Assembly (NCBI GenBank): GCA_020053155.1
Contig: JAGVNS010000158.1
Coordinates: forward strand, 1-35,212
Source of the DNA: Nitrososphaerota archaeon
GTDB taxonomy: Archaea; Iainarchaeota; Iainarchaeia; Iainarchaeales; VGJJ01
Direction: 5' to 3'
Length of the DNA stretch: 35,212 nucleotides
Under the pieces are notes generated by a model. It was not told where the DNA came from and searched no databases. It was given only the letters and a program-made list of their open reading frames with translations. Of this stretch, positions 18,453 through 33,750 are shown one piece after another (within the stretch, counting starts at the first letter, position 1; the number at the start of each line of letters is the position of its first letter). Made by a program: the position numbers and the translations under genes.

Positions 18453-19228
18453 TGGGCTTCGTGGAATTCTTCCATGGGAAGCACTTTTCGTGGATTCACA
18501 AAGGCTTAGCTAAAAAGTTCCTCACCAACGCCGATTATTTGTGCGCCATGTCCAGCGCGGACCAAAAAATGGTCCAGAAAGAACTCCCCCACGCAAAAGT
18601 AGCATTTTTTATCGAACCCCCTTACTCCAATCCGGCCGCAGAGGCAAATGTTTTCTCCAAAAAAGAATCCAAAAAATGGTTAGGGGTATCCCCAACGGAC
18701 TCCATCATTCTTTTTTTTGGATTTATTCGCCCGTACAAGGGACTCATGTACCTGATTCGTGCCCTTCCCCGAATTTTGGAAAAGAAACCAAACACCAAAC
18801 TAGTCATTCAAGGGGTTTTCTGGAAAGACAGGCAAAAATATTTTGATGAGATTGAAAAACTGGGACTGAAAGAACACATTTTGATTCGAGAGGGATACGT
18901 GGCAGGAGATGACCGAGCGCGCGTATTCTATTCCGCGGACGTAGTGGTCATGCCCTATTTGAACATTTCTGAATCCGCCATTATTCCCTTGCCTTGGGGA
19001 TTTGGAATACCCATCATTTGTACATCCGTGGGAGGGAACGTGGATTGGATTGAGGATGGGGTGGATGGGTACTTAGTCCCCCCCCGGGATTCAACATCAT
19101 TGGCCGATGCAGTGCTAAAATTTTACTCCCAAAAAATGGAGAAAAAATTCAAAGCAGGAATGGGCAAAAAAATGAAGAAAATGAAGTGGGGTCCCACTCA
19201 TGAAAGAGTGGTTCTGGGGAACTTTTAG
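18449..19228 (+). CDS. GT4 glycosyltransferase, C-terminal part (259 aa) of the split gene
   Basis: 'ILFFGFIRPYKGLMYLI' and 'VVVMPYLNISESAIIPLPWGFGIPIICTSVGGNVDWIEDGVDGYLVPP' form a GT-B C-domain with an EX7E-like region. It continues the N-fragment without an obvious missing segment. Confidence 0.7.
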   Translation: MMGFVEFFHGKHFSWIHKGLAKKFLTNADYLCAMSSADQKMVQKELPHAKVAFFIEPPYSNPAAEANVFSKKESKKWLGVSPTDSIILFFGFIRPYKGLMYLIRALPRILEKKPNTKLVIQGVFWKDRQKYFDEIEKLGLKEHILIREGYVAGDDRARVFYSADVVVMPYLNISESAIIPLPWGFGIPIICTSVGGNVDWIEDGVDGYLVPPRDSTSLADAVLKFYSQKMEKKFKAGMGKKMKKMKWGPTHERVVLGNF

Positions 19229-19250
19229 CATGAAAAAAGGAGAATCGGGC

Positions 19251-20351
19251 ATGAACAAAATTCCAGTGACACAGTACACGGAAGCGGGAAACGAAATGAA
19301 ATACTTGAAACAGGTCATCGACTCCAAATGGTTGGGCGGCGGTCCCTTCGTTGAGAAGTTTGAGAAAACTTTTACCCAATATTGCGACATGAAGTATGGA
19401 TGTGCGGTTTCAAATGGAACAAATGCGCTGTACCTCATTCTCAAAACCCTTGGAATTGGACCTGGGGATGAGGTCATTGTGCCGGATCAAACGTTTATTA
19501 CTCCTGCGAGTATGACGTTGCACGCGGGGGGGAAACCCGTGAGCGTGGACGTGCAGCCGGATACATTCAACATGGACCCCACTCAAGTCGAGAAAGCCAT
19601 CACGCGCAAAACAAAAGCCATTGTGGGGGTAGACATGCTGGGGCATCCCGCGGATTGGGACGAGTTGAATGAAATCGCCACCAAACATGGTATCATGCTC
19701 ATTGAGGATGCGGCGGAGGCCCATGGAGCATTGTACAAAAAAAGAAAAACGGGCTCGCTATCTCCCATTACGATGTTTTCGTTCTATGGAAACAAAACCA
19801 TTACCACGGGAGAGGGGGGGATGATTCTCTCAAACGACAACGAATTCATTGAAAAGTGCTTTTTGACGCGGGGTCATGGGATGCGACCAGAGAAACGGTA
19901 CTGGCATGACGTGATGGGGTACAATTACCGCATGACCGATTTGCAAGCCGCGGTGGGATTGGCCCAATTCGAAAAAATAGAGACGTTTCTTTCCGCCAAA
20001 CGAAACGTGGCACGCCAGTATGCGGAACGATTGTCTAAAATTCCGGGCATTGATATTCCGATGGTGCGCCCGTATGCTACGCACTCATACTGGATGTATC
20101 AAATCAACGTAAACAAACCCTTTCCCATTTCACGTGATGCACTCGCAACAGAATTGGGGAAACGAAACATTGACACGCGAAGGGCGTTCTATTCGGTTCA
20201 CGTACAGCCTCCGTATGCGCAGAAAGGGGCGTTCCCCAATAGCAACCGGTGTTCGGAGACCGGACTCATGCTCCCCATCGGAGCCAATTTGACAGGCGAA
20301 CAGGTGGAATACGTGTGTGATGGGATTGAAGACAGTGCTAGGCACCGCTGA
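19251..20351 (+). CDS. DegT/DnrJ/EryC1/StrS-family PLP-dependent sugar aminotransferase
   Basis: 'GGGPFVEKFEKTF...GCAVSNGTNALYL', 'EDAAEAHGA' and 'FSFYGNKTITTGEGG' (the PLP lysine). I chose ATG 19251 because 'AAAGGAGAA' lies about 8 nt upstream. Confidence 0.9.
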   Translation: MNKIPVTQYTEAGNEMKYLKQVIDSKWLGGGPFVEKFEKTFTQYCDMKYGCAVSNGTNALYLILKTLGIGPGDEVIVPDQTFITPASMTLHAGGKPVSVDVQPDTFNMDPTQVEKAITRKTKAIVGVDMLGHPADWDELNEIATKHGIMLIEDAAEAHGALYKKRKTGSLSPITMFSFYGNKTITTGEGGMILSNDNEFIEKCFLTRGHGMRPEKRYWHDVMGYNYRMTDLQAAVGLAQFEKIETFLSAKRNVARQYAERLSKIPGIDIPMVRPYATHSYWMYQINVNKPFPISRDALATELGKRNIDTRRAFYSVHVQPPYAQKGAFPNSNRCSETGLMLPIGANLTGEQVEYVCDGIEDSARHR

Positions 20352-21132
20352 AGGATGCGTTGCGAATGACTTCAACGAGTTGATGCCAAACTGGATTTTT
20401 GTTTCCGAGTGTGGGGGGGTGGGTGCGCACGCGCCAAATGTTTTGAAAGAAATTAATCATCGTTGGAATAAGTTTCACGGAACTGTTTCCCCGCTCATAC
20501 CATATTACGGGCACCTCTGAAATTTTTAGTCCGTGAATTTGAGCAGAAAACATTAATTCGGTTTCAAAGAAAAACCACGAATCACGAACATCTCCCAAGA
20601 TGGGCAAAATGCGCGCGCGGTTAAATCCCTTGAACCCACATTGCGGGTCTGAAAAAGTAGCCCCCAAAAAAAAACGAAGAACAACCCCCGTATATACCTT
20701 TGAAACCAGCAAGCGAATAGGGTCCCGTACGATTTTAGATTGGGGATGATATCGTGAGCCACTCACCAAATCGCTACCTTTTTTTAGTTCATGAATGAGA
20801 GAAGAAACCCCCCCCACTTCCGTTGCGAGGTCCGCATCCATATAAACTACATAATCCGCATCATTTTCCCACAATCCATTGAGGATGGCACTCCCTTTCC
20901 CGGGCGTATTTACGTGCGTGATTCGAACATTTGTCCAGAGCGCGGCGATTTCTTTCAATTCATTCCACGAGGAGGGTGGTTTTCCATTGTACGCAAGGGT
21001 TACGCGCCAACGCACATCGCGAAGGGATTTTTTACATTCCCCCATGATTTGGGGGAGATTGGCACGAACATCCGAAACGTTTCCTGCATAGGTGGCAAGT
21101 AAAATATCCACGCTGGCCTGAGGGTGTACCAT
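20338..21132 (-). CDS. GT2 glycosyltransferase (ALG5/dolichyl-phosphate hexosyltransferase-like, no C-terminal TM)
   Basis: 'VDILLATYAG', 'GKGSAILNG', 'VVYMDADLATEV', 'QCGFKGFNR' and 'FFFETELMF'. A TATA-like box lies 26.5 nt upstream of the ATG. Confidence 0.8.
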   Translation of the reverse strand: MVHPQASVDILLATYAGNVSDVRANLPQIMGECKKSLRDVRWRVTLAYNGKPPSSWNELKEIAALWTNVRITHVNTPGKGSAILNGLWENDADYVVYMDADLATEVGGVSSLIHELKKGSDLVSGSRYHPQSKIVRDPIRLLVSKVYTGVVLRFFLGATFSDPQCGFKGFNRARILPILGDVRDSWFFFETELMFSAQIHGLKISEVPVIWYERGNSSVKLIPTMINFFQNIWRVRTHPPTLGNKNPVWHQLVEVIRNASFSGA

Positions 21133-21153
21133 AGGGTTTCTAAACCTCTGACC

Positions 21154-21163
21154 TATTAAAATA
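21154..21163 (-). promoter_or_regulatory. TATA-like box (near-palindromic TATTAAAATA)
   Basis: Centred about 26.5 nt upstream of ATG 21132 on the minus strand, which implies a leaderless transcript. Confidence 0.45.
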
Positions 21164-21170
21164 GGAGAGG

Positions 21171-22055
21171 ATGACCACCATTTTTCTGACGGGAGGGAGC
21201 GGGGAAATAGGGAGTGTGCTCATTCGTGAACTGGCTCCTTCGCACAAAATTAAAGCCCTTTTTTTGAATGCACCCGGAGCATTTACACATGCCCATGTCG
21301 AATGGGTTCAGGGAGATGTTACCCAACCATGGACGTATGAATCCCACTTGAAAGGAGTGAATAAAATTGTTCATCTCGCGGCCCAATTACGCGGGGGAAA
21401 AAACGAATCGTATGAAAAGGTCAACGTGAAAGGTACGCTTGAATTAGTGAAAATGGCACACGAAAAGGGCGCACGGCATGCCATTATCGCGAGTAGTGCG
21501 TCAATAACCCAAAAACCCCTTTCCCTGTATGCCCAATCAAAAAAGAAAATGGAAGAACGCCTGCGTCACGCACAAATGCCCGTGACCATCATCCGCCCCA
21601 CATTAGTGTACGGCCCCCACTCTCGCTACATTCAGTTGTTTCAAAAATGGGTGGAGGGACCGCTGCCCCTTTTTTTTCTCCCCAACAATGGAATGGCCGA
21701 CATTCGTCCGGTGCACGTGAATGATGTTTCGCATGCCATTCATGCGTTAGTCAAAAAACCCCCCAACGGAAACAAGACGTATGACATTTGTCCGCGGACC
21801 CCTTTTACCCTGCGTCAAATAATTGAAACGGTCATGGAAGCACGTGGGATAAAAAAGCCCCTGGTGGGGGTGGGGGAAGGAACGTATGCACCCATCCTCG
21901 CGCTTCTTCAGAAATGCAGGATTCCCATCCCTTCCCTTTTTTCCACTTGGGTTGCGGGGGGAAATGGGTATACCGTAAACCCCGAACCCTTTTGGGAGGC
22001 GTATGGCATTCCTTTTATTGACCCGCGAGAAGGGATTCAAAGGTGCGTGAAATGA
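21171..22055 (+). CDS. NAD(P)-dependent epimerase/dehydratase/reductase (extended SDR)
   Basis: 'IFLTGGSGEIGSVLIREL', the YxxxK motif 'SLYAQSKKKME', and 'IIRPTLVYGP'. Confidence 0.8.
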   Translation: MTTIFLTGGSGEIGSVLIRELAPSHKIKALFLNAPGAFTHAHVEWVQGDVTQPWTYESHLKGVNKIVHLAAQLRGGKNESYEKVNVKGTLELVKMAHEKGARHAIIASSASITQKPLSLYAQSKKKMEERLRHAQMPVTIIRPTLVYGPHSRYIQLFQKWVEGPLPLFFLPNNGMADIRPVHVNDVSHAIHALVKKPPNGNKTYDICPRTPFTLRQIIETVMEARGIKKPLVGVGEGTYAPILALLQKCRIPIPSLFSTWVAGGNGYTVNPEPFWEAYGIPFIDPREGIQRCVK

Positions 22056-23689
22056 CGTTCTCTCTTTTACTCGACATAGATGCGATTGCGTGGAAAAAAA
22101 TGGAATGGGGGACTTTTTTCATTGGGTTATGGGTCATTCTGGGGGTGTGGGCCGGAATGGCAGGAGTGCTTTCCCCCCTCATTCCCATTCTCGCGCTCAT
22201 ACTAACGTTTCTTTTTTTTAATGGTCATGAAAAAATAAAAAAAGAAAATACGGTTCCCACAAACGGACTTTTGTTTTTTTCAGCTCTTCTCATTATTGGT
22301 TTTTCATTTGTCTTGTTTGGGGTGCAGGGGGGATTTGATTTGAGCGCGGATACCGCTCCCGTGGTGGCGGCGCAGCTCATTTCATCCAAAATCCCCCTCA
22401 CGTATGCGCCCTATTCTTCCCTCCCATTTGTCTATCCTCCGGGTTTGCCAGTAGTGGCGGCCCAAGTAGGAATAGTTGGAATTCCCATTCACCAAATCGT
22501 TTGGGCGTTGGGTTTGGTTGGGTTTTTGCTTTTGATGTGGAGCGTAACGCGCTGGGTTTGGGCTGTGGGGCAAAAGGACATTCGTTTGGCGTGGGTGGTT
22601 CCTGCGCTTTTTCTCACATTGCGACTGCCCATGCAGAATATTTTGACGGGGGAGTATGCATTCGTTTTAGGCATGGGTCTGGGTGTGAGTGCGTGGAATA
22701 GTGGGAACGATTCCCCAAAGTCGACCCTTCACACCATTGTTTTGCTGGCCGCATCTTTTTTGGTTCACCCGTATGCAGGAATTGTTTCGTTTGTGGGTTT
22801 GTTTTTTTCTGAAATGGTTTTTCGCCCTTCTATTGATTGGAAAAAATGGGTAAAGTTGGGGGTGGGGGTGGGAGTATTTTTCATTCCATATTTGGTTCAG
22901 CTGGCTGCATTGAGAAATTTTCCCCCCGCTGAAATTCCTCTTGGGAGTCTGAATCTGGGTTCCCTGGTTCCAATGGTTTCTCTGGTGGGGTTGATTCCTT
23001 TTTTGGTTTGTTTTATTTTGCTTGTTTTGGGTTTTTTTCGCAGGCAAATGGGAAAAGGAACGCTCTCGCCCCAAGAAAAAGTGTTGGGGAGATTTGTACT
23101 TTTAGGAATAATTGGATTTTTACTCGGAAATGTCAAACCCGAATGGGTGATGGGGCCCAAATTTCTTTTGCTGACATGCATTGGGTTAGTAGGGTGGGGG
23201 TCGCTCCGTCTTTCTCCATTGTTGACGGGTAGAGTCGTTCAAGCCGGTGCGCTGGGGTTGGTACTTTTGGGCGTGCTCGTAGTAGGTACCTCCCCCACGA
23301 TGCAGGGATATGTCACGGGTTCTAAACTCACATTGGGGGAAGCGCACGCTGCCGAATGGATTCGAGAATATGTTCCCCTACATTCCCGCGTGTGGTTTTT
23401 GTCGGATGGGGAAGGGAAGATGGGGGAATATTCCAAAACCATTCCTTCCGACATGGTCCAATCGCACTATTTCAATTACACCCTGCTCCATGGAATTTTA
23501 ACCCCGGAGGTAGACCGAATCATTTCAACCGCTTCCACTTCCAATCGCATTCGTAAAAGTCAACAATACGTTCCCCTTTCCCTATTTGAGCCGGAATATG
23601 TACTAGTTGATACGCGGATTTTTCCCCCTCTAACTAAAACTCCCCTCGGGGAGAAGGATGGGTTTGTCATTTACGCCCTGCAAAAATAG
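22052..23689 (+). CDS. Polytopic membrane protein with soluble C-terminal domain (third GT-C-like candidate)
   Basis: The ORF track start at 22043 is a GTG. The ATG at 22052 forms an ATGA overlap with the SDR stop. It has more than 10 hydrophobic helices, a first loop 'GGFDLSADTAP', and a C-terminal domain of about 130 aa. The architecture parallels 2658..4157 and 9191..10786. Confidence 0.6.
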   Translation: MTFSLLLDIDAIAWKKMEWGTFFIGLWVILGVWAGMAGVLSPLIPILALILTFLFFNGHEKIKKENTVPTNGLLFFSALLIIGFSFVLFGVQGGFDLSADTAPVVAAQLISSKIPLTYAPYSSLPFVYPPGLPVVAAQVGIVGIPIHQIVWALGLVGFLLLMWSVTRWVWAVGQKDIRLAWVVPALFLTLRLPMQNILTGEYAFVLGMGLGVSAWNSGNDSPKSTLHTIVLLAASFLVHPYAGIVSFVGLFFSEMVFRPSIDWKKWVKLGVGVGVFFIPYLVQLAALRNFPPAEIPLGSLNLGSLVPMVSLVGLIPFLVCFILLVLGFFRRQMGKGTLSPQEKVLGRFVLLGIIGFLLGNVKPEWVMGPKFLLLTCIGLVGWGSLRLSPLLTGRVVQAGALGLVLLGVLVVGTSPTMQGYVTGSKLTLGEAHAAEWIREYVPLHSRVWFLSDGEGKMGEYSKTIPSDMVQSHYFNYTLLHGILTPEVDRIISTASTSNRIRKSQQYVPLSLFEPEYVLVDTRIFPPLTKTPLGEKDGFVIYALQK

Positions 23690-23719
23690 TCTTTTGTGCC
23701 CATTTGAAGGTCGTTTTTG

Positions 23720-24682
23720 TCAAACGTGAGTGATAATGTGTTCCTTTGAGACAAGTGTAGAATCTATTCTAAGGATGATGGGGGCGAATCTGCTTTTTAT
23801 TTCGCCAATTAATGCGTAGTAGTCTTCCGCGGATGCCGATTCAATTTCAAGCTCGGCGTCCCAGCTTCCAATGGTTTTTATCCAATAAATGATGTTGGGG
23901 CTTGTTCGAATATATTCACGAAGTGTTAGGTATTGGTTATTTGTTAGATTACGAAAGGTAATAAAACATTTGAAGAAAAGAAAACCTAATTTTCGATAGT
24001 TGATGGCGAGTTTATACCCGACAATGATGCCTTTTTTTTCAAGGTCAGCTCGTCTATAACGGATGATTCTTTGGGTTATACCCGTTTTCTTTTCCAGCTC
24101 GACAGAACTTGTTCGTGCATTGGTGGCGATCGCATGTAATATTTTCCAATCTTCTTCGTCCAAACTTTCAGCCGCGCTTTTATCACAGTGTAAGAAAGAA
24201 ACTTTCTTTTCAGGGTACTCGGGGAGCAAATAATATCGTGGCTTTGTTTCTGCTTCCGTTAGGATTGCGATTTGCATGTTTTGAATGAATTTGTCAAATT
24301 TTTGACAGAATACGTCCTTAAAGTCTTCGAACTCAAATATAGTTGGAAAGCGAATGGAAAACATTAAGTCAAATACTCCTTCTGTGCTTGCGAGCCAGCC
24401 AATTTCTTGGGCTGACGATAAATAGTCAATTATTTCCTGTTTTGATTCGCTCGGGATAGTGTTGAATTGCAAGTAGACCTTGAAATGAATACGTCCTGTT
24501 TTGGCGAAATGGGAAAGGGTTACATACTGCAAAATAATATCTCGGGCCTCCAGCTGGCGTATCCTATACAATACGGCTTCTTTTGAAATCTTGAGTCTTT
24601 TGGCAATCTCGCTCAGGGGGGTCGTGGCATCTGTATCAAGTAGTAACAGAATTAATCGATCCCTCTTATCCAAAGACTCCAT
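23720..24682 (-). CDS. Lrp/AsnC-family transcriptional regulator, tandem duplicated (two HTH + RAM-like units in one chain)
   Basis: Unit 1 is 'LDKRDRLILLLLDTDATTPLSEIAKRLKISKEAVLYRIRQLEARDIIL...STEGVFDLMFSIRF'. Unit 2 is 'LDEEDWKILHAIATNARTSSVELEKKTGITQRIIRYRRADLEKKGIIVGY...TIGSWDAELEIES'. A TATA-like box lies 26.5 nt upstream of the ATG. Confidence 0.8.
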   Translation of the reverse strand: MESLDKRDRLILLLLDTDATTPLSEIAKRLKISKEAVLYRIRQLEARDIILQYVTLSHFAKTGRIHFKVYLQFNTIPSESKQEIIDYLSSAQEIGWLASTEGVFDLMFSIRFPTIFEFEDFKDVFCQKFDKFIQNMQIAILTEAETKPRYYLLPEYPEKKVSFLHCDKSAAESLDEEDWKILHAIATNARTSSVELEKKTGITQRIIRYRRADLEKKGIIVGYKLAINYRKLGFLFFKCFITFRNLTNNQYLTLREYIRTSPNIIYWIKTIGSWDAELEIESASAEDYYALIGEIKSRFAPIILRIDSTLVSKEHIITHV

Positions 24683-24704
24683 TTAATTAATATAACAACA
24701 ATAC

Positions 24705-24712
24705 TTTATAAT
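24705..24712 (-). promoter_or_regulatory. TATA-like box (TTTATAAT) for the Lrp-like gene, nested in an AACAAT-N11-ATTGTT inverted repeat
   Basis: Centred 26.5 nt upstream of ATG 24682. The inverted repeat arms lie at 24697..24702 and 24714..24719. Confidence 0.5.
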
Positions 24713-24721
24713 AATTGTTAT

Positions 24722-24737
24722 TTTGTGAAAGAAATAG
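24722..24737 (+). promoter_or_regulatory. Operator-like direct repeat copy 1 (TTTGTGAAAGAAATAG)
   Basis: It matches 24753..24768 at 15 of 16 positions, and the two copies start 31 bp apart. It lies just upstream of the rSAM gene's TATA-like box. Confidence 0.5.
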
Positions 24738-24740
24738 CTC

Positions 24741-24752
24741 ATAAATATTATA
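24741..24752 (+). promoter_or_regulatory. TATA-like A/T block (ATAAATATTATA) for the radical SAM gene
   Basis: Centred about 30 nt upstream of ATG 24778 and flanked by the two direct repeat copies. Confidence 0.45.
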
Positions 24753-24768
24753 TTTGTGAAAGATATAG
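24753..24768 (+). promoter_or_regulatory. Operator-like direct repeat copy 2 (TTTGTGAAAGATATAG)
   Basis: See copy 1. This copy lies between the TATA-like box and the ATG, a position typical of a repressing operator. Confidence 0.5.
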
Positions 24769-24777
24769 TATACATAA

Positions 24778-26121
24778 ATGAGTCCTATTCGTGTAAGGGA
24801 GACGTTGGAAGAACGATTGGTCTATTACAACGGGCTTATTCCCGCCACCTACCCTGGCATTTTTCCAAACGATTTTGTCCTGCAGCCACAGGACTGGATT
24901 CTTTCCTCGAACGTGGTTAATCGGCCCTTCGTTAAAGCTAAAATCAATGAGGAATGGAAAATGATTCGACCCATTGGGACGATGGACGTCGAACTTTTGT
25001 CCAATCACATCGTGGAGCGGGCAAAGGCTGGGAAAGTCGATCTGGTGAAGAACTACCCCTGCGGGCTAAAATGTCCGGGCTGTTTTTCGGAAGAGGCAAT
25101 TTATGGGGATGCAACGAACCTAATGAAATGGCAGGAGGTAATGGCCGTCCTTGACGAGGCACAAAAAATAGGATTAACCTCAGTAAAATTTTTAGGACCC
25201 GGAGAAATGTTTCAGAATCCTGACTTATTTGATATTCTCGATGCCTTTGAGGCGCGAAAACTTCCGATTTCCATATTCACCAAAGGTGCTGAACTCGGAG
25301 ACGATGCACTTGCCCAAAGAAGTTTCGGCCATTTAGGAATAATAACGGCAAAACAACTCGTGCAGAAAATAGCCAAGTATTCGATTGTTCGAATCCTCCT
25401 CGGATTTAACTCATTCTTTACCCAACGACAAGACAGTTACGTGGGTTCGCTGCCCGGGAATTCAACCTATTCTTTCAACGACGGAGTTTTCGAAAATAGG
25501 GGCATTTCCGGCTACACCCCTAAACGAAACAATGCCCTTGTCAATCTTGTCGAAGAGGGATTCAATGCTCCGGGAAAGGGACAGCGTCTCACACTCATTA
25601 TGGCCCCTCTCTACAGCATTCAAGTGGATGAAGTGGCCGAAATGTACGAATGGGCAGCCCGTCGAAACATGCCAGTGGTTATTACCCCGACTATGGAATC
25701 CGGCGAAAAATCTCTTCGACTCCGTGCCGTAAACAAAGCCACTGACCCGGAAAACAATTGGATAAAGGAGGCATTATTCAAAGTGTACTCCCGCGCCATT
25801 GAGATCGGGATTCTATCGATTGACCAAGTTGAGACAGAAGGGGTTTCCCCATATTTTGGGTCCAAAGGATGTAACCAAGTGGCAAATGGACTCATGATGC
25901 GACTCAACGGACAAATCAAAATATGCCCCGGCTCCTCACGACCTGAACACATCTATGGAAACATTCACAATAACTCCCTTGCTGAAATTTGGATAAAGAG
26001 CCCGAACTACGCCCTCGGTCCGATGATGAATAATTGGTGTCTAGCAAAACGAGAAGGACTGCCAAAGAAAATGCAGAAAGAAACGCTAGAACAACTCAAA
26101 GCACAATACGCTTCAAAATAA
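24778..26121 (+). CDS. Radical SAM enzyme with an N-terminal extension of about 95 aa and a Cys-containing twitch/SPASM-like C-terminal region; substrate unknown
   Basis: CX3CX2C motif 'YPCGLKCPGC', 'FLGPGEMFQNPDLFDIL' (a GGE-like SAM motif), and a C-terminal 'GSKGCNQVANGLMMRLNGQIKICPGSS...YGNIHNNSLAEIWIKSP...NNWC'. Confidence 0.85.
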   Translation: MSPIRVRETLEERLVYYNGLIPATYPGIFPNDFVLQPQDWILSSNVVNRPFVKAKINEEWKMIRPIGTMDVELLSNHIVERAKAGKVDLVKNYPCGLKCPGCFSEEAIYGDATNLMKWQEVMAVLDEAQKIGLTSVKFLGPGEMFQNPDLFDILDAFEARKLPISIFTKGAELGDDALAQRSFGHLGIITAKQLVQKIAKYSIVRILLGFNSFFTQRQDSYVGSLPGNSTYSFNDGVFENRGISGYTPKRNNALVNLVEEGFNAPGKGQRLTLIMAPLYSIQVDEVAEMYEWAARRNMPVVITPTMESGEKSLRLRAVNKATDPENNWIKEALFKVYSRAIEIGILSIDQVETEGVSPYFGSKGCNQVANGLMMRLNGQIKICPGSSRPEHIYGNIHNNSLAEIWIKSPNYALGPMMNNWCLAKREGLPKKMQKETLEQLKAQYASK

Positions 26122-26340
26122 TCCTTTAAGTGGACCAAGTTGATTTTTCCTATTTTCAAATACAGACTCCTGTTTGATTAAAAAAACTGGCCAACATATA
26201 GTGATGTAAATAGTTCTCTGTACCTTTGAAAATAACTCCCCAATTCTTCCTTCCTCTGCCTGAAGGGAGCTTTATCCAGTCTTCACCTCACATTTATTTG
26301 GTGACTTTCATTTCTTTAGGGTTTTAGGTATTAGATGAGA

Positions 26341-27342
26341 TTATTTTTGGATGACATCTTTTTTTGGGGTGCGCTTCATTAATTTCTCCATGCTCTCCCG
26401 AATGCGCGGGGGTTCCTGATTGAAAAGCAATCCCCCCATGACAAAACTGGGAATGTACCCCACCAAGAAGTACAATACCGAGAAAACAATAGCGGATTCA
26501 GGGGAAACACCGTACGCGGACAACACGATTACCGCTCCTACCTCACGCGTACCAACCCCTGCAACGCCAAAGGGAATAATTTCAATGAGAGAAACAATGG
26601 GAACCGCAATCAATGCCGCGCCCCACCCTACATTAATATGGGCGGCTTGCATGAGAAAGAAACCCATGGTCACGGTCATAAGCCAAGCGCCGATGCCTAA
26701 GAGGAATACCTGAACAACAACCCCCGCGTTTTTTGTAATCAGGGGAACGTTGTCATAGAACTCTTTTCCATGGAGAGAAATCATCTCGCGGAGCGAAGAA
26801 GGAACAAATCGATTGAATACCTTCCAAAGCTTCCCCCCCACACGTCGGTTGAACACCAAAAATATTCCCGCCACAAAGATAAAGCCGAGAAAGAGGAGGA
26901 GGGGAATGGAAACAACCTCCTGACCATTCGTTGAAAAAAGGAACCAGACCCCCAAAAAAGCAAACAAAAAAAGGATGGTTACGTCAATGATTCGGTCCAC
27001 TAATACGGCCAACACGCTGCGTGCCACACCCAATTTGTCATTAATGTACAGCACGCGCACAAAATCCCCAATGCGACCGGGGGTAATGACCCCAATGAAG
27101 AGACCGATAAGCAATGTTTTTGCGGAAGTAGAAAAGGAAATGACCCCCCCCACGGAACGAACGGCCCGTCCCCACTTGAGTATTTTTCCAAGCATGAGAA
27201 CCAACCACACGCCTAACGCCCACGCAATGAAAACAATGTCCACTCCCTGAAGGGTGCGTCCCATGGTTCCAATGTCCAAACGAGTAACGGCCAAATAGAC
27301 AATGAACAATGTTACAAGGATTGAAATCCACGAGAGACGCAT
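26341..27342 (-). CDS. Flippase-like integral membrane protein (LPG_synthase_TM / UPF0104 family)
   Basis: 'ILKWGRAVRSVG' and 'GVITPGRIGDFVRVLY...LVDRIIDV' are the family signature. The profile suggests about 8 TM helices. A TATA-like box lies 28 nt upstream of the ATG. Confidence 0.75.
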   Translation of the reverse strand: MRLSWISILVTLFIVYLAVTRLDIGTMGRTLQGVDIVFIAWALGVWLVLMLGKILKWGRAVRSVGGVISFSTSAKTLLIGLFIGVITPGRIGDFVRVLYINDKLGVARSVLAVLVDRIIDVTILFLFAFLGVWFLFSTNGQEVVSIPLLLFLGFIFVAGIFLVFNRRVGGKLWKVFNRFVPSSLREMISLHGKEFYDNVPLITKNAGVVVQVFLLGIGAWLMTVTMGFFLMQAAHINVGWGAALIAVPIVSLIEIIPFGVAGVGTREVGAVIVLSAYGVSPESAIVFSVLYFLVGYIPSFVMGGLLFNQEPPRIRESMEKLMKRTPKKDVIQK

Positions 27343-27385: not shown

Positions 27386-28225
27386 CTATCCAATTTTTTC
27401 CAAACGCTGAATGCGCTCGTAAAGGGAAGGGTGCGTGGCGAACCATCCCATCACCGCGCCTGCAGAAAAAGGATTGGCGATGAACATGTGAGCCGTTCCC
27501 CGATTTGCATCCGTGAAGGGGGTGTGGGAAATTCCTTTCTCCAATTTTTTCAACGCGGACGCGAGGCCGTGTCCCGTGTGCAACGTTTTGGCCGCGGTTT
27601 CATCCGCCAAAAATTCCCGGCTGCGCGAGACGGCCAGTTGAATGAGCATGGCAATGATGGGAATGATAATGGCGATGACAATTAATCCGATGGGATTCTT
27701 CCCCTCACGTTCTCTCCCCCCAAAACCCATCCACAAAATGGAGTGGGCGATGATTCCAATCGCTCCCGCAATGGTCGCCGCCACGGAAGCAATAAGTATG
27801 TCCCGGTTTTGGATGTGCGAAAGTTCGTGGGCAATGACTCCCTCCAATTCATCATCGTTGAGCAACTGCAAAATGCCTTGAGTAAACACCACCGCTGCAT
27901 TTTCGGGACCGCGACCCGTGGCAAATGCATTGGGGGATTTTTCCGAAATGGTGTAGAGGCGAGGCATTTTGGGCAAATGCATCTTTTGAGTGACCCCCCG
28001 AACCAACCGGTGAACCCGCGCCCCTTCGGACGATTTCTCATCCAGGGGTTGGGCATGATACATCCACAATACTATTTTGTCTGAAAAGAAGTAAGAAAAG
28101 CCGTTCATAAGCACGGCAAAAAAGAATGCGACAATCATCCCGTCAAAGCCCCCCACGAGATTTCCAATGACAATCAATATGGCCGTCAGGACCCCTAAAA
28201 AAAAGACCGTTCGCAGTTGTTCCAT
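27386..28225 (-). CDS. htpX: Zinc metalloprotease HtpX (peptidase M48)
   Basis: 'VIAHELSHIQNRD' (the HExxH motif), N-terminal TM helices, and 'REFLADETAAK...THPSLYERI'. The ORF track start at 28234 is a GTG. The ATG at 28225 lies about 12 nt downstream of a strong SD 'AAGGAGGGG'. Confidence 0.9.
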   Translation of the reverse strand: MEQLRTVFFLGVLTAILIVIGNLVGGFDGMIVAFFFAVLMNGFSYFFSDKIVLWMYHAQPLDEKSSEGARVHRLVRGVTQKMHLPKMPRLYTISEKSPNAFATGRGPENAAVVFTQGILQLLNDDELEGVIAHELSHIQNRDILIASVAATIAGAIGIIAHSILWMGFGGREREGKNPIGLIVIAIIIPIIAMLIQLAVSRSREFLADETAAKTLHTGHGLASALKKLEKGISHTPFTDANRGTAHMFIANPFSAGAVMGWFATHPSLYERIQRLEKIG

Positions 28226-28286
28226 GGGATTCACTCCCCTCCTTTTTTACCATGGAGGAGGGGCCAATACGCAAGAAGCGATAAAC

Positions 28287-28296
28287 GTTTTTAAAC
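28287..28296. promoter_or_regulatory. Near-palindromic TATA-like box (GTTTTTAAAC) in the htpX / surface-protein divergent spacer
   Basis: This is the only strong A/T box in 28226..28343. It would give 5' UTRs of about 25-35 nt on both sides, each containing an SD-like G-run (GGAGGGG for htpX, GGGGG for the surface protein). Confidence 0.35.
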
Positions 28297-28343
28297 CACT
28301 TCGCGTACAGTGGGGCTATCCATTCCATTTTGGGGGAAAAACA

Positions 28344-30767
28344 GTGAACCGCAGACTGATAGGGGTCATTTTCATTGGAATCGTCTTTTTGGCATTAGGG
28401 TCTGCAGGATACGCCTCTACCACGCTCGCCATCCAGGGGGCACCCGCCTATGCCAATCAAGACAATGATATCGTGTTCAACTTCATCGCTACCAATCCTG
28501 ATTTTGATGGGCAGATTCAATTAGACACATACAAATACTATTTGAGCACCGACGCTACACTTGAAACAGGGAGCGATACCGAATTCAGTCCCACTCAGTT
28601 TCCTACTCCTTCCGGGGAGTTGACTACCGGAAAGACATTTTCAGGGGTTAAACTGGATTTGAGTTCGCAGAGCGATGGAACGTATTATCTTTTTGTGGAA
28701 ATCACCATTACCCCGCCCCTTGCATCCGAAAGTTCTCCCTCACACCAAATCATCCTGGATAAAACAAACCCGGTCATTGCCCCTTTGGTATTCAACCCTA
28801 TTCCTTTCACCGGGTGGAGCAAGATTCCAATACAGGTAACATCCTCCTGCAACGAGACACCATGCATCATGGAGTATCAAATAGGAAGCGGGACATTAAC
28901 CGCATTCACGAGTCCGCTTACCCTGTCAACGGCCAACGGGACCATTACCCTCAAAGCCACCGATGCTGCGGGAAACACCAGTACGTTGACAAGCACGGAA
29001 ACTCTCCAAATTGACACCAACGCCCCAACGGGATTTTCGATAAACGCCACCACGTCCTACACCAATGATGCAACTCCCGACATCACCATAAACGCCACGG
29101 ATGCGGGAGTGGGGGGAATGAAAGCGTACGTCAAGTGTGAGGGTACAACGGCCGGGACTGAACTATCCATGAGTGGGTCTTCACTTGTGGTGAATAATTT
29201 TGACATTACAACCGGACCGAATTGTATCACATCAAACGGAGACAAGATTCTCAAAATTTTAGTGAAAGATGCATTTGATTTTGAGACCGAAGAAAAGTCC
29301 CTTACCCTAAAATACGATGCCACCCCTCCCGACACGGTGACTTCACTCTCCATTACCAGCACGGGAAGTGACCAAATCTCATTGGACTGGCCCGCCCCCT
29401 CCGATTCGGGAGGGAGCGGAATAAACAACTATGACGTGTATCGTGGCACCACGAATTCCATCCCCGGAAGTGCATTGACCAGCACGAGTGACTCGTCTTA
29501 CACGAATACGGGATTGTCTTCCTGCACCACCTATTACTATTGGGTCAAAGCCCGCGACAACGCAGGAAACGTAGGCCCTGCGAGCAGTGCGCTGGAAGCC
29601 AAAACGAGCGGCTGTTCCGATACCGACCCCGATGATGACCCCCCGATAGACGATAATGACGGGGACGTGATTTCGTGTAACGTCACCCCCACCTACACAA
29701 ATACGGCGCTTTACGCAGGAGAAACCGTCATCATAAAAGTCACCACCAGCACCTCCCAAGTATGGACCCTCCGCGCCAACATCCCAGGAAAATCGGGAAC
29801 CCAGGAGCTGAAAAGCGGAACGGGAAAAGAAGCGAGCGCCTCCCTGAACGTACCCAATCAGGTGGGAAAATCCATTGACATTTTCTACAAATACCAGTCT
29901 GGCTCATGCGGTGCGCCCAAAAAAACATACGTTATCAAAGACCCGGCGACCAAAACCAGTGATGGAGTTAGCGATGGGGACAACACAGGTTCGGGGAGTG
30001 ATGAAGAAGGTTCCTCCCCCCCGCCCATTTTGGGAACAACAACCCCCGTGGAGCCTGTGACGCAGACCATTTCCTTTTCTCCCGACCAAATCCCTGCGCT
30101 GCTCGCCAGTGCGGGATTCAATGCAGAAAACACCCAACTGAAGGAATCCATGGCTTCTTTTTTGGTGCAGTGGAACGTGCTCAAAACCATCACCGTTGTT
30201 CCCTCCGCGGAAAATGGAAAATATTCATTGCGGATGATCATTTCCCTGCAAAACACGGGCAATCAGGGAACCATCAAGCTCATCGAGGAAATCCCCAAGG
30301 AGTTTGCTTCACTCGCAAGCGAACTTGAAAGCGATTATCCCATGACCACATTGAAAGACGACCCCCTCATTCAATTCGAATTGAAGGATTTATATGAAGG
30401 ACAAATGGTCGAAATACAAATCACTGGAAAAACCGTATACGATTCCATTGAAGAGGCCAATCAGAAAGCCGTCGAAATCGCAGAAAAGGGAACGACTCCC
30501 CCGCTCCTTTTTGGAACGGGAACCGCTCGGCCAAACCCAAACGGACGGTCGGATGTATTAGCAGGGTTTTCAGGATTAGTTGGAGCAGTAGGCTCGAATG
30601 GATTGATTATTTTAGGATTCTTGGTAGTCGTGGGATTGGTCATGGTCAGCGTCCGCGTGATTCGCACGAGTGTAGATGGGGCGGATAATCCCATCATCCG
30701 GAGTGCGGCCAATGCCCGCTATGGCAAAACACGGGAAGGAGATTTTTTCATCCGCCGAAAAAAATAG
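28344..30767 (+). CDS. Large secreted, C-terminally membrane-anchored surface protein (Ig-like/FN3 domains, Thr/Ser-rich); candidate S-layer, adhesin or glycoprotein
   Basis: I place the start at the in-frame GTG at 28344 (VNRRLIGVIFIGIVFLALGSAGYA, a signal-peptide-like sequence). The ORF-track ATG at 28167 lies inside htpX. An FN3-like segment at about 29320..29610 reads 'PPDTVTSLSITSTGSDQISLDWPAPSDSGGSGINNYDVYRG...CTTYYYWVKARDNAGNVGP'. An acidic linker reads 'DTDPDDDPPIDDNDGD'. A TM anchor 'GLIILGFLVVVGLVMVSVRVI' lies at about 30598..30663, followed by a basic tail. Confidence 0.75.
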   Translation: MNRRLIGVIFIGIVFLALGSAGYASTTLAIQGAPAYANQDNDIVFNFIATNPDFDGQIQLDTYKYYLSTDATLETGSDTEFSPTQFPTPSGELTTGKTFSGVKLDLSSQSDGTYYLFVEITITPPLASESSPSHQIILDKTNPVIAPLVFNPIPFTGWSKIPIQVTSSCNETPCIMEYQIGSGTLTAFTSPLTLSTANGTITLKATDAAGNTSTLTSTETLQIDTNAPTGFSINATTSYTNDATPDITINATDAGVGGMKAYVKCEGTTAGTELSMSGSSLVVNNFDITTGPNCITSNGDKILKILVKDAFDFETEEKSLTLKYDATPPDTVTSLSITSTGSDQISLDWPAPSDSGGSGINNYDVYRGTTNSIPGSALTSTSDSSYTNTGLSSCTTYYYWVKARDNAGNVGPASSALEAKTSGCSDTDPDDDPPIDDNDGDVISCNVTPTYTNTALYAGETVIIKVTTSTSQVWTLRANIPGKSGTQELKSGTGKEASASLNVPNQVGKSIDIFYKYQSGSCGAPKKTYVIKDPATKTSDGVSDGDNTGSGSDEEGSSPPPILGTTTPVEPVTQTISFSPDQIPALLASAGFNAENTQLKESMASFLVQWNVLKTITVVPSAENGKYSLRMIISLQNTGNQGTIKLIEEIPKEFASLASELESDYPMTTLKDDPLIQFELKDLYEGQMVEIQITGKTVYDSIEEANQKAVEIAEKGTTPPLLFGTGTARPNPNGRSDVLAGFSGLVGAVGSNGLIILGFLVVVGLVMVSVRVIRTSVDGADNPIIRSAANARYGKTREGDFFIRRKK

Positions 30768-30800
30768 GGGCTATGCGAAAAGGGAAGACGAGTCAGATAA

Positions 30801-30941
30801 CTAACGCCTCCGACGCATTGCATAAAGCGAAAAGAGAAAGAGGACCCCCCACCCCAGGGCGAGGGTAGGATAGTCCAGGCTCACGTGAAAGAGTTTGGCT
30901 CCTACCCAAAGCATGAAGGGGAAAAAGAGAAGGGATGTCAT
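30801..30941 (-). CDS. Possible small two-TM membrane protein (46 aa from the ATG; 77 aa from an upstream TTG)
   Basis: 'MTSLLFFPFMLWVGAKLFHVSLDYPTLALGWGVLFLFSLYAMRRRR' has two hydrophobic stretches and a poly-Arg tail. No other support. Confidence 0.25.
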   Translation of the reverse strand: MTSLLFFPFMLWVGAKLFHVSLDYPTLALGWGVLFLFSLYAMRRRR

Positions 30942-31122
30942 CCCCCCCAAACGAACTTTAGGAGGAAGGGGTATTTTTTCCCATTTCCTTGAAAAAAAAA
31001 GGAAAGGGCCATTCCCCCCCAAAACAAAAACCAAACAATGGCTGCCATCGCCCCCAAAAAGAGGAGAATCACCCCCTTCTTGGATTCGGTTGACCCTAAA
31101 AACCCACGTTTGGGGAGGGGAG

Positions 31123-31130
31123 GTTAAAAT
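31123..31130 (+). promoter_or_regulatory. TATA-like box (GTTAAAAT)
   Basis: Centred 27.5 nt upstream of ATG 31154, which implies a leaderless geranylgeranyl reductase mRNA. Confidence 0.45.
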
Positions 31131-31153
31131 GGTTTTGACCCGGCTCCTACATC

Positions 31154-32305
31154 ATGACCGGGAACGTAACCATTGTGGGGGCAGGGTGTGCCGGACTTCG
31201 ATTGGCTCGCCGACTGGCCGAAAAAAGCGTCCAAGTGACGGTTTATGAGGACCACCCCCAAATTGGGATTCCCGAGCATTGTTCAGGCCTCATTTCCGCA
31301 CGCAACACCAAAGAATTGGGGTTTGATTTGAGGGAAAGTTTTACGAATGACATTTATGGGGCTAAACTATTTTCCCCCAACAATACCCAGTTGCGCATCG
31401 AAAGCAAAAAGCCCGTTGCGCACGTGATGGACCGAAGCACGTTCGACCAAACGCTTTACACAGAAGCCATTCACGCGGGGGCAAATGTTGAGTTAAGTAC
31501 CAGTGTAATTAATGTCAAAGGAAATACCCTCTTTACCCAATCGAAAGGAAAAGGGGGAATGAAGAAATCCGACATCATTGTGGCAGCAGACGGGGTCAAC
31601 TCTCACATTCGAAAAATGGTGGGAGTCGAAAGCAAGCCCGGGGATTTCATTCATTCGTACCAAGTAAAGGCAGCGGGGCATTTCGAACCCCATTTTGTTG
31701 AACTCTATTTCAGTGAAAAATTCGCCCCCCACTTTTTCGCGTGGGTGATTCCCGAAAACGAGGAGAGCGCCAAAGTGGGAATAGGGTGTAAAGTGGGAGT
31801 GAATCCCGCACACGCGTTTAACGCGTTTCTAAAAGAAAAACAGATTGACATTCACGTTAAAACAAGTAACTCCTTTCTCATTCCGTGCTCTCCTCCTATT
31901 CGGAAACTGTATTTTGACCCTATACTCCTGCTTGGGGATTCGGCCTACCAAAACAAAGCGACGAGTGGAGGGGGAATCATAATGAATTGCAAAGCAGCCG
32001 ACATTTTAGGAGAGGTCATTACAGAACATATTCACAACGAAGCCCCTTTGGATGCGTATGAGAAAAAAATGGAGCCCATTTTTAGAGAACTGGAACTGCA
32101 TTACAAAATTCACCAATACCAAAGCCGGCTGGGCGATGAAGACATAAATCGATTTTTTCTCAAACTAAAGGATGCAGGCATTGAGCAGTTTCTTTCGAAT
32201 GAGGGGGATATGGATGAACCCTCTCGATTTGTGGGAAAACTCATCTCCAACCCCCGCATGATTTCACTCCTCCCTGAAGCGGTGAAGTTTTGGTTCACCA
32301 AATAG
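31154..32305 (+). CDS. Geranylgeranyl reductase family FAD-dependent oxidoreductase
   Basis: 'VTIVGAGCAGLRLARRLA...VTVYE' (the GxGxxG motif), 'EHCSGLIS', 'IVAADGVNSHIRK' and 'LLLGDSAYQNKATSGGGI'. Confidence 0.85.
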   Translation: MTGNVTIVGAGCAGLRLARRLAEKSVQVTVYEDHPQIGIPEHCSGLISARNTKELGFDLRESFTNDIYGAKLFSPNNTQLRIESKKPVAHVMDRSTFDQTLYTEAIHAGANVELSTSVINVKGNTLFTQSKGKGGMKKSDIIVAADGVNSHIRKMVGVESKPGDFIHSYQVKAAGHFEPHFVELYFSEKFAPHFFAWVIPENEESAKVGIGCKVGVNPAHAFNAFLKEKQIDIHVKTSNSFLIPCSPPIRKLYFDPILLLGDSAYQNKATSGGGIIMNCKAADILGEVITEHIHNEAPLDAYEKKMEPIFRELELHYKIHQYQSRLGDEDINRFFLKLKDAGIEQFLSNEGDMDEPSRFVGKLISNPRMISLLPEAVKFWFTK

Positions 32306-32404: not shown

Positions 32405-32460
32405 TCCATTTGAATAAAATGGGAGTTTATAGACATTTATGCAGCAGCATAGCCCTTTGG

Positions 32461-33750
32461 ATGGTTCGTGCTAATGGATTCAGTGCCTTTGCTCTTCCAC
32501 TAACAATAATGCTTATAAGGATAATGGCTATTATCCCTACTATGATTATTCCTAGGCCGATGGATGTAAAAAAAATAGTTGATTCCAAAAAATGGGTGTT
32601 AGTGTATGGAAGGCGAAAAACAGGAAAAACTTTTTTAGTACAGCATTTTGTTCGGTTTGACGAATATTTTTTCGTCAAAAATAGCGGGAGCATCCTGACT
32701 AAAAAAAGCGACTCAATTACTTATGAAACATTTATGGAAATTTTTAGAAGAACCATTGAAGAAAATAAAATCGTGGTGGTGGATGAGTTTCATCGCTTAG
32801 GGAACGATTTTTTTGATTACCTACATTTCATGAAAAAAAATGGCAAGGTAATCCTCATCTCATCGACTCTTTTTCTTTCTAAAAAACTCATTTCCGAAAA
32901 GTCGGCGTTGCTCGGTTTATTTGCCGAGGTTCCAATTGGAATCATCAATTTAGGCGATGTTTTAAACGCACTAAAAAAAAGTGATAGCTCCCTAAAAGAA
33001 CAATTAGAGCTGGCGGTATTGCTGCGTGAACCTATTGCTATCGATTATTTTGATCCAATGATGCATGTTCGAAAGACGATGGCTAAAATAATATTGGGTT
33101 CATCCAAGACCATTCCAGCGCTAATTGGAGAAATTTTTGTAGAAGAAGAAAGGGAAATCTCTGGGGTGTATGAGGGAATTCTTCGAGCCATTGCCTCTGG
33201 AAAAGTGGGCTCGGGGGAAATAACTTCTTATCTTTTCTCCAAAAAGTTAATCAAAAAAGAAGACTCGAGCATGATTCAGCAATATTTGAATAATCTTACA
33301 TCCTTTGGCATCATTCGTAAAATAGGTGTTTTTGACAAGAGGCGATTCATTTACAAGTTGACGTCTCCTCTGGCGCGAATATACTATTATGCGGATGAAA
33401 AATACAATTTATCGGAACGAATTGTTTCGGAAAAAGAGATGGCAACTATTATTGATGAGCTGATGCCAAAAATCGTGGAAGATGCCGTGAGGGAATTCCT
33501 GTCGGAAAAGAACGGTCTTATTGAGAACGTAATTGATGCCGCTGATTTTGAAGTGGATGGGGTGCTCCTCAAATTCAAGAAGCCGGAAATAGCATTAGAG
33601 GTAAAATGGAAAAAACTCGGAGAAAAAGAAATACGCCAAATCGAAGAAAAACTAAACCAAATTCAAGTCAAGGAAAAAATACTATTTGTGCCGGATAAAA
33701 CAGGGATTAAGTCCACGCTTACAGTAATGGATGTGAGGGACCTGCACTAA
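32461..33750 (+). CDS. Archaeal ATPase family protein (P-loop ATPase + wHTH + DUF234/PD-(D/E)xK-like C-terminal domain)
   Basis: Walker A 'VYGRRKTGKT', Walker B 'IVVVDEFHRL', a wHTH-like 'GILRAIASGKVGSGEITSYL', and a C-terminal 'FEVDGVLL...IALEVKWKK' (D...ExK). The start is uncertain: TTG 32410, ATG 32419, ATG 32461 (about 31 nt after the TATA-like 'TTTATAGA') or ATG 32560. The frame is stop-free from 32410, which favours an early start and adds a hydrophobic N-terminal segment. Confidence 0.8.
   Translation: MVRANGFSAFALPLTIMLIRIMAIIPTMIIPRPMDVKKIVDSKKWVLVYGRRKTGKTFLVQHFVRFDEYFFVKNSGSILTKKSDSITYETFMEIFRRTIEENKIVVVDEFHRLGNDFFDYLHFMKKNGKVILISSTLFLSKKLISEKSALLGLFAEVPIGIINLGDVLNALKKSDSSLKEQLELAVLLREPIAIDYFDPMMHVRKTMAKIILGSSKTIPALIGEIFVEEEREISGVYEGILRAIASGKVGSGEITSYLFSKKLIKKEDSSMIQQYLNNLTSFGIIRKIGVFDKRRFIYKLTSPLARIYYYADEKYNLSERIVSEKEMATIIDELMPKIVEDAVREFLSEKNGLIENVIDAADFEVDGVLLKFKKPEIALEVKWKKLGEKEIRQIEEKLNQIQVKEKILFVPDKTGIKSTLTVMDVRDLH

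Follow-up and report, generated by a model that had tools for sequence, protein, structure and literature searches.

We describe here a pair of divergent genes in the 35,212-nucleotide contig JAGVNS010000158.1 (assembly GCA_020053155.1) of a Nitrososphaerota archaeon, placed by its GTDB lineage in the Iainarchaeota; the whole of this stretch is referred to below as the window. The gene on the minus strand (23720..24682) encodes a 320-aa protein with two Lrp-type modules in tandem (the tandem Lrp), and the gene on the plus strand (24778..26121) encodes a 447-aa radical S-adenosylmethionine (SAM) enzyme (the rSAM). Between them lies a 95-bp spacer (24683..24777; GC content 0.158), the bidirectional control region of the pair. 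An original prediction from the sequence had interpreted these two open reading frames (ORFs), which diverge across a 95-bp spacer, as an AT-rich, horizontally acquired and self-regulated two-gene module; their coordinates and lengths are reproduced exactly. In what follows, the rSAM and its neighbouring regulator emerge as a conserved unit, and the AT-rich part of the locus as a cassette of regulator and promoters that was probably exchanged.

The tandem Lrp and the radical SAM enzyme

The description of the 320-aa product as a double Lrp/AsnC protein is borne out by Pfam, which finds HTH_AsnC modules at aa 4-50 and about 174-223; a RAM-type ligand-binding module comes after each of them. The helix-turn-helix (HTH) profiles match two stretches each (HTH_AsnC-type PF13404, 55 bits against a cut-off of 27; HTH_24, 56 bits), and the RAM domain PF01037 reaches 24.5 bits against a cut-off of 25. 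The AlphaFold2 model (predicted local distance difference test, pLDDT, 95) contains two complete modules, each an HTH followed by a beta-alpha-beta-beta-alpha-beta unit. The best sequence matches in the PDB are LrpA and LrpC, and Foldseek aligns the individual modules with Lrp regulators at template modelling (TM) scores of 0.75-0.83, root-mean-square deviations of 2.3-2.8 A and identities of 20-26%. We take the protein for a genuine transcription factor of the Lrp type with its two halves joined in one chain, which would correspond to one dimer. With both RAM modules intact in the model, small-molecule sensing is a plausible property. The matches of the protein to PADLOC models are confined to the HTH of Csa3/CARF proteins.

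The comparison of the whole chain raises a different idea, namely that the tandem Lrp-fold protein is a siroheme decarboxylase-type enzyme (NirDL, AhbA/B) and forms, with a NirJ/AhbC/AhbD-like rSAM, a fragment of a tetrapyrrole pathway. The best whole-chain Foldseek match is NirDL (4ch7; E 8e-15, TM 0.61); moreover, there are weak matches of the Lrp protein to NirdL-like_HTH and AhbA/AhbB, and of the rSAM to NirJ, NirJ1 and, in a relative, AhbC. However, NirDL takes the first rank because it is the sole fused tandem Lrp-fold protein among the PDB matches, its identity to the window protein is 12%, and the separate modules fit AhbA/B (TM 0.51) less well than they fit the Lrp regulators. The family scores also fall short: the AhbA/AhbB models NF040707 and NF040708 give 17.0 bits against 125 and 16.6 against 140, PF22451 gives 19.8 against a cut-off of 27, and on the side of the rSAM, the NirJ/AhbC/AhbD-type models TIGR04051 and TIGR04054 give 21 against 515 and 14.9 against 650, in the cluster-binding region only. 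In addition, the spacers carry conserved operator-like elements, and an unrelated protein of the TrmB family fills the same slot in the candidate phyla radiation (CPR) and in the nearest relatives of the window rSAM, as one would expect if the protein were a transcription factor rather than a catalytic subunit. On the grounds of the family scores, the per-module fold fit and the replacement of the partner, we reject the siroheme decarboxylase reading as highly improbable.

Three parts can be told apart in the rSAM protein: an N-terminal domain that is specific to the family (aa 1 to about 90), then the rSAM core, and finally a C-terminal domain that resembles a partial SPASM or twitch domain. 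Its CX3CX2C motif (C95, C99 and C102; 25060..25083, plus strand) provides the ligands of the SAM-cleaving [4Fe-4S] cluster, and these three residues are invariant in 30 orthologues (alignment A1). Six cysteines in total are invariant in that alignment, the other three being C365, C383 and C421 in a C-terminal segment (25870..26040, plus strand) that is a putative three-cysteine site for an auxiliary Fe-S cluster. With only three invariant C-terminal cysteines, the protein lacks the seven-cysteine motif of SPASM. The label ‘atypical’ given to the enzyme in the original prediction is a fair one, since both Radical_SAM (PF04055, 27.2 bits against a cut-off of 29.5) and SPASM (PF13186, 18.8 against 21.5, a weak match at aa 365-411) are matched below threshold only; distant relatives collected with the family profile exceed the PF04055 cut-off, with 33-49 bits. 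In a search with the family profile, aa 365-409 match BtrN weakly (E 0.24), and the N-terminal 90 or so residues have no match in Pfam.

The AlphaFold2 model of the rSAM is confident (pLDDT 88, predicted TM score 0.90). The top 23 Foldseek matches in the PDB are all rSAM enzymes (probability 0.98-1.00, TM 0.31-0.47), and SuiB, anSME, DesII, BlsE, EpeE, MoaA and viperin, which are among them, are distant (TM 0.35-0.47, identity 10-14%). Because these matches are distant and generic to rSAM/SPASM enzymes, no function can be transferred from them. Searches of PDB sequences with the single sequence and with the family profile gave no match below E 0.01, and all NCBIfam models stay far below their cut-offs, the best at 38 bits against 380 and in the cluster-binding region only. 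In other words, the rSAM is a member of an uncharacterised family, without a curated model or a close solved structure. The sole PADLOC match of the rSAM is pVip (E 0.0011), which covers the generic core only; with nothing in that scan beyond generic core and HTH matches for the two proteins, a defence role finds no support.

Several of the matches bring to mind the maturases of ribosomally synthesised and post-translationally modified peptides (RiPPs), in which case the rSAM would act on an unannotated precursor peptide encoded nearby. The peptide- or protein-modifying SPASM enzymes SuiB and anSME head the Foldseek matches, several peptide maturases appear among the weak NCBIfam matches, and the N-terminal domain of about 90 aa could in principle be a recognition element. 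This domain, however, gives no PqqD or RiPP recognition element match even at E up to 10, and the C-terminal domain has three cysteines rather than seven. In about 50 loci, the 700 bp downstream of the rSAM contain no small ORF that is conserved, and in the window the interval 26122-26340 holds only TTG-start ORFs of 21-33 aa; nor is there a conserved peptidase or exporter among the neighbours. The identity of 50-60% across domains of life is also unusual for RiPP tailoring enzymes. A role as a RiPP maturase is thus unlikely and not supported.

A conserved neighbourhood of enzyme and regulator

About 80 orthologues share 50-60% identity with the rSAM, and a second tier of relatives follows at 31-40%. 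The family is small, with 74 clusters (50% identity) at E <=1e-30 and 174 at 1e-10 among 1.84 billion representatives, and is found mainly in DPANN archaea and the CPR; its hosts, where named, are Woese-, Pace-, Nano- and Micrarchaeota, CPR/Patescibacteria and a few Alphaproteobacteria, including a Micavibrio metagenome-assembled genome (MAG). Distant relatives are fused to a REC receiver domain, to a metallo-beta-lactamase fold or to unassigned C-terminal extensions; these fusions hint at regulation and not at the substrate. A search of one literature library for the family in combination with DPANN/CPR, Lrp or TrmB returned nothing relevant.

For the synteny scan, one genome was taken per species, which gave 52 loci (L numbers below denote these and other contigs), 48 of them with enough upstream sequence to be evaluated; ORFs were called, and the neighbours were searched and clustered. 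A divergent winged-helix regulator lies directly upstream of the rSAM in 38 of the 48 evaluable loci, at distances of about 30-340 bp apart from two outliers at 714 and 913 bp. This is the sole conserved position, and no other conserved neighbour was found. Archaeal loci have a tandem Lrp of 325-344 aa as the partner (20 loci, and L003 by direct look-up), separated from the rSAM by 30-140 bp, except in L017, where the gap is 913 bp. The partner in the CPR, L005 and L045 is instead a protein of the TrmB family, about 260 aa in length (PF01978, 67 bits; 18 loci, and L001 by look-up). Since the pairing is found in many genomes, the adjacency of the rSAM and a regulator is real and widespread, and the doubt whether the two genes are ever neighbours outside this contig is removed. 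The rSAM and a dedicated local regulator form a conserved unit.

It is the type of regulator that changes. A neighbour-joining tree of the rSAM contains three clades, one from the CPR with TrmB and two that are rich in DPANN archaea with Lrp; the window rSAM groups with L001 and L005, and both of these nearest relatives carry TrmB. Four loci that are Proteobacteria-like (L004, L015, L062 and one on contig P0058) have a gene for a membrane-anchored Peripla_BP_6/ANF_receptor-like protein of about 430 aa directly upstream in the same orientation, and its end overlaps or nearly abuts the start of the rSAM (L004 4694-6004, L015 4664-5938 and L062 3667-5001). In four loci, a small gene near the rSAM resembles response-regulator receivers weakly and under the Pfam threshold (E 7e-4), and in L054 this gene overlaps the start of the rSAM; one distant relative is a REC-rSAM fusion. 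The regulator type is interchangeable: DPANN have a tandem Lrp of a kind that we call C-type, the CPR have a TrmB type, and other lineages have a binding protein or a REC domain.

Two further observations concern individual members of the family. In two of the Proteobacteria-like contigs, the pair is close to conjugation or relaxase genes (ArdC, TraG-like, Replic_Relax). In L051 and L052, which belong to the Absconditabacterales, the rSAM orthologue is fragmented under genetic code 11 and intact (447-455 aa) under genetic code 25, the code expected for this group; neither a TrmB nor an Lrp neighbour of the rSAM was found in these two.

The C-type Lrps, recognisable by the N-terminal motif LDKxDxKILxELDKNCRIP, are accompanied by spacers with a fixed layout across DPANN phyla. 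Most of the 21 loci have a T..GCTCA box and, 23 nt on, a TATA box of the form TTTRWTATA; about 16 nt past the latter, before the expected transcription start, lies a palindrome TTACYAY-N-ATAGTAA, and a Shine-Dalgarno sequence and the ATG come after the palindrome. The strict pattern of the palindrome is present in eight of the 21 loci, with a degenerate form visible in several more. The fixed layout was seen in L003, L006, L013, L014, L016, L033, L034, L039 and others. Such conservation is unusual for intergenic DNA, and the layout offers a ready-made operator prediction for the whole family. None of its elements is present in the spacer of the window.

The W-type regulator, its control region and their surroundings

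The regulator of the window is only about 30-33% identical to the C-type partners. It belongs to an orthologue group of its own, which we call W, with members at 40-88% identity in Woese- and Aenigmarchaeota MAGs. The divergent partners of the W-type genes vary: an unrelated 719-aa B12-type rSAM in L057 (W-type Lrp with 88% aa identity to that of the window), a third kind of gene in L060 (85%), where the B12-type rSAM lies downstream of the Lrp, Peripla_BP_6 lipoproteins in L058 and L061 (58% and 63%), and an uncharacterised 165-aa protein in L059 (58%). Compared with L057 and L060, the window is 81% and 78% identical at the nucleotide level in the Lrp coding sequence and 69% and 76% identical in the spacer; the spacers of the other two, each of 94 nt, align without internal gaps (one end is offset), and their identities exceed the maximum of 200 shuffles (65-67%). 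The identity drops to the level of shuffled sequence exactly at the ATG of the partner and past the stop codon of the Lrp. The W gene and the complete spacer recur in front of different genes, and they therefore behave as one unit.

A few observations on the W group may be added here. The B12-binding-type rSAM of about 719 aa travels with the W-type Lrp (L057 594-2753, L060 1448-3220), and its best NCBIfam matches are C- or P-methyltransferase-like families, all far below cut-off; the W-type Lrp thus adjoins at least two unrelated radical SAM genes. The archaeal contig L046 has a C-type tandem Lrp divergent from the rSAM and, 3.3 kb downstream, a second tandem Lrp (10558-11526) with greater similarity to the W-type of the window (182 bits against 138). 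On this evidence, C and W are paralogues able to share one genome. A functional link through Peripla_BP_6, which occurs on the side of the rSAM in bacteria and on the side of the W-type Lrp in two archaeal contigs, was considered and dropped, as the two sets are only distantly related and are membrane-anchored proteins in one case and lipoproteins in the other.

The composition of the window coincides with these borders. The AT-richness ascribed to the segment as a whole holds for the Lrp gene and the spacer and fails for the rSAM gene when each gene is compared by z-score with the other 27 genes of the window. The Lrp gene has a GC content of 0.399 (z = -3.0) and a GC content at third codon positions (GC3) of 0.417 (z = -2.7), whereas the rSAM gene is ordinary (GC 0.462, z = -0.5; GC3 0.482, z = -1.1). 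In other words, the AT-rich patch is 23720-24777, with a GC content of 0.377, which is the Lrp gene plus the spacer. The whole segment of 2402 bp (GC 0.425) lies in the lowest 5.5% of windows of the same size, the lowest of which starts at 31801 and spans an AT-rich gene (32410..33750; GC 0.375). The absence of G/C runs, also thought to set the segment apart, is not a significant depletion: there is one run of at least 6 (G6 at 24616) where 3.7 are expected (Poisson P ~0.12), and none of at least 7 where 1.7 are expected (P ~0.18). Over the whole window, homopolymers are enriched, with 25 G/C runs of at least 7 against 10.8 expected under a first-order Markov model, 23 of them inside ORFs, and 58 A/T runs of at least 7 against about 32; this looks like a genome-wide trait and not one specific to the gene pair.

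The proposal that the whole Lrp-rSAM pair is a recently acquired AT-rich islet can draw on the dip of the GC content to 0.40 around 23500-25000 and on the low rank of the segment, as well as on the spread of the rSAM family across domains and its proximity to conjugation genes in the two bacterial contigs. The dip, however, is made by the Lrp gene and the spacer only, and the rSAM gene, within 0.5-1.1 standard deviations of the other genes in GC and GC3, is host-like. No flanking direct repeats, tRNA genes, integrase or other integration marks were found around the segment; the tRNA and Rfam scans over the whole window were both empty. Furthermore, the homology to L057 and L060 ends at the start codon of the rSAM. 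We consider acquisition of the pair as one islet unlikely.

What the data point to instead is an event on one side of that start codon. The contigs L057 and L060 have a GC content of 40-42%, and the W gene there matches its surroundings; W-type Lrp genes differ from the low-GC contigs that carry them by no more than about 2 GC points. In the window, the W gene is 7.4 GC points below the rest. The coincidence of the AT-rich patch with the cassette and the fit of the W gene to contigs of 40-42% GC favour a recent arrival from a relative of lower GC content. We therefore think it fairly probable that in this genome the regulator and its control region were replaced as a cassette, and that the pair was not acquired as such; the phrase ‘AT-rich inserted pair’ should be narrowed to an AT-rich cassette of regulator plus promoters.

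Within the 95-bp spacer, elements that may serve both promoters can be recognised. The candidate autoregulatory operator is an inverted repeat, AACAAT-N11-ATTGTT (24697..24719), a single match in the window, which encloses the TATA-like box of the Lrp gene (24705..24714, minus strand; TTTATAATAA on the plus strand), centred about 27 nt 5' of its ATG. The form (T)AACAA-N11-13-TTGTT(A) is kept around this Lrp-proximal box in 6/6 W-type spacers (alignment A3), and the box itself falls in the conserved proximal half of that alignment. ACAA/TTGT half-sites are over-represented in the spacer (5 against 1.04 expected, P = 0.003). The general architecture of archaeal promoters gives the box its presumed function, and a site that overlaps the TATA box of the regulator's own gene is the usual layout of (negative) autoregulation by Lrp.

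On the other side, the TATA-like box of the rSAM gene (ATAAATATTATATTT; 24741..24755, plus strand) is centred about 28 nt 5' of its ATG, and its core, CA(C/A)AAATATAATA, is common to the spacers of L057, L060 and L061. It is bracketed by two 16-nt direct repeats, TTTGTGAAAGAnATAG, 31 nt apart: copy 1 (TTTGTGAAAGAAATAG; 24722..24737, plus strand) lies 5' of the box, and copy 2 (TTTGTGAAAGATATAG; 24753..24768, plus strand) lies between the box and the start codon. If up to 2 mismatches are allowed, the window contains 2 matches to the repeat where 0.12 would be expected, a count that 0 of 100 shuffles attain. Archaeal repressors that block the recruitment of polymerase usually have their site between the TATA box and the start, and the position of copy 2 would let a bound protein block RNA polymerase. 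No Shine-Dalgarno sequence is present in front of either gene, which suggests leaderless mRNAs.

These elements bear on the suspicion that the adjacency in the window is incidental and that the W-type Lrp regulates itself or distant genes only. Such a reading could explain why W-type Lrp genes are found beside five different kinds of gene and why the canonical C-type control layout is missing here. Against this, the conserved cassette includes the partner-proximal half of the promoter region right up to the ATG of the partner, the direct repeats bracket the TATA-like box of the rSAM gene, and the rSAM family keeps a divergent regulator in most of its loci. We consider a purely incidental neighbourhood unlikely. 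The view of the locus as a self-regulated two-gene module, put forward in the original prediction, is upheld both by the pairing with a divergent regulator in dozens of genomes and by the palindrome and repeats that bracket the two TATA-like boxes of the spacer.

On its downstream side, the rSAM is followed by genes for a flippase-like LPG_synthase_TM membrane protein (26341-27342, minus strand) and an HtpX-like M48 protease (27386-28234, minus strand); M48 genes are also found a few kb from the rSAM in L004 and L033, which may be a coincidence. Cell-envelope genes occupy 19200-23689 and 28167-32305, among them a DegT-type aminotransferase, a GT2 glycosyltransferase, an NAD-dependent epimerase, a 548-aa polytopic membrane protein without a Pfam match, an 866-aa fn3-containing surface protein and a geranylgeranyl-reductase-like flavoprotein. 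As the ORF listed at 28167-30767 shares 68 nt with the start of 27386-28234, it probably begins later than listed. The gene with the highest AT content in the window, mentioned above (32410-33750; GC3 0.383), encodes an AAA_14-type ATPase with weak matches to two candidate defence families of PADLOC, PDC-S01 and PDC-S27. In L001, an AAA_14/DUF4143 gene of a similar kind is found about 1.8 kb upstream of the TrmB-rSAM pair, and L010 has a similar ORF that clusters with it.

A model of the unit and its relation to known systems

The explanation that we favour, and hold to be probable as a whole, is that of a conserved two-gene unit of rSAM and Lrp into which a W cassette has been swapped. The rSAM carries a SAM-cleaving [4Fe-4S] cluster on C95, C99 and C102 and would bind an auxiliary cluster on C365, C383 and C421; it would generate a 5'-deoxyadenosyl radical and abstract a hydrogen from a substrate that is conserved, probably not a peptide, and positioned close to the auxiliary cluster. 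The tandem Lrp would bind the palindrome and the phased direct repeats of the spacer and in this way control both divergent, probably leaderless, promoters, its own included, in response to a small ligand held by the RAM modules. In the window, the slot of the regulator is taken by the Lrp paralogue W.

Several points weigh against this explanation. Nine of the 48 evaluable loci have no recognisable regulator. L057 and L060, on which the comparison of cassettes depends, are short contigs of 3-4 kb. The C-type Lrp genes average 3.7 GC points below their flanks (15/17 loci), and the W copy in L061, a contig of 53% GC, is 5.7 points below its flanks; since Lrp genes fall below the GC of their flanks elsewhere too, part or all of the AT bias in the window may be intrinsic. 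Because the partners of W vary, regulation of the rSAM by the window Lrp is less certain than in the C-type pairs. Finally, the operators and promoters are predictions from sequence, as is the ligation of one auxiliary Fe-S cluster by C365, C383 and C421.

One may speculate further on what the family does. DPANN and CPR genomes are very small and have few transcription factors, and a cross-domain enzyme family that almost always keeps a local regulator of its own even there makes a promising candidate for a role at the centre of a host-dependent life. The rSAM family might be a lifestyle enzyme of these host-dependent, ultra-small organisms, acting on a conserved and possibly host-derived small molecule, with regulators exchanged as portable cassettes; we offer this tentatively and regard it as doubtful at present. 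If it were true, expression of the rSAM would be so critical that very reduced genomes retain a dedicated sensor-regulator for it, and cassettes of a regulator and a bidirectional promoter could be plugged in before different genes, including at least two different radical SAM genes. The family also provides a clean natural case of regulator turnover, with Lrp-C, Lrp-W, TrmB, a REC domain or a binding-protein partner according to lineage, and the window a well-defined experimental target of one enzyme, one regulator and a 95-bp control region. The textbook view is unchanged by these findings: the pair is made of known kinds of parts, a twitch/SPASM-like rSAM and an Lrp regulator, and is not a new kind of system.

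Among known systems, the Lrp/AsnC regulators, or feast/famine regulatory proteins, such as Pyrococcus LrpA (1i1g), PH1519/FL11 (2cyy/2e1c) and E. coli Lrp (2gqq), have the same HTH_AsnC plus RAM architecture as each half of the window Lrp, and they share with it a gene divergent from the target and a palindrome overlapping their own promoter. The characterised members are homodimers or octamers of chains of about 150 aa, whereas the window Lrp fuses two modules in 320 aa and belongs to a DPANN-specific paralogue group. The TrmB-family one-component regulators of the CPR are placed and oriented like the Lrp with respect to the rSAM orthologue, but they are a separate family, unrelated to Lrp beyond the winged helix.

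For the enzyme, the closest comparison is with the SPASM/twitch enzymes (anSME 4k36-39, SuiB 5v1s, BtrN 4m7t, MoaA 1tv7, DesII 8hzv and EpeE 8ai1), with which it shares the CX3CX2C motif and a partial TIM barrel; its GPGE segment resembles a SAM-binding motif, and its C-terminal cysteine-bearing extension matches the start of the SPASM motif. It differs from them in having three auxiliary cysteines instead of seven, in its structural distance and in its N-terminal domain without a Pfam counterpart. The combination of a tandem Lrp fold with a SPASM-like rSAM is likewise found in NirDL/NirJ and in AhbAB/AhbC/AhbD of the heme d1 and alternative heme pathways, whose family models the window pair misses more than 7-fold in score; in contrast to NirDL and AhbAB, its HTH modules are typical of DNA-binding Lrp proteins, and its genes diverge from a shared control region rather than forming a biosynthetic operon.

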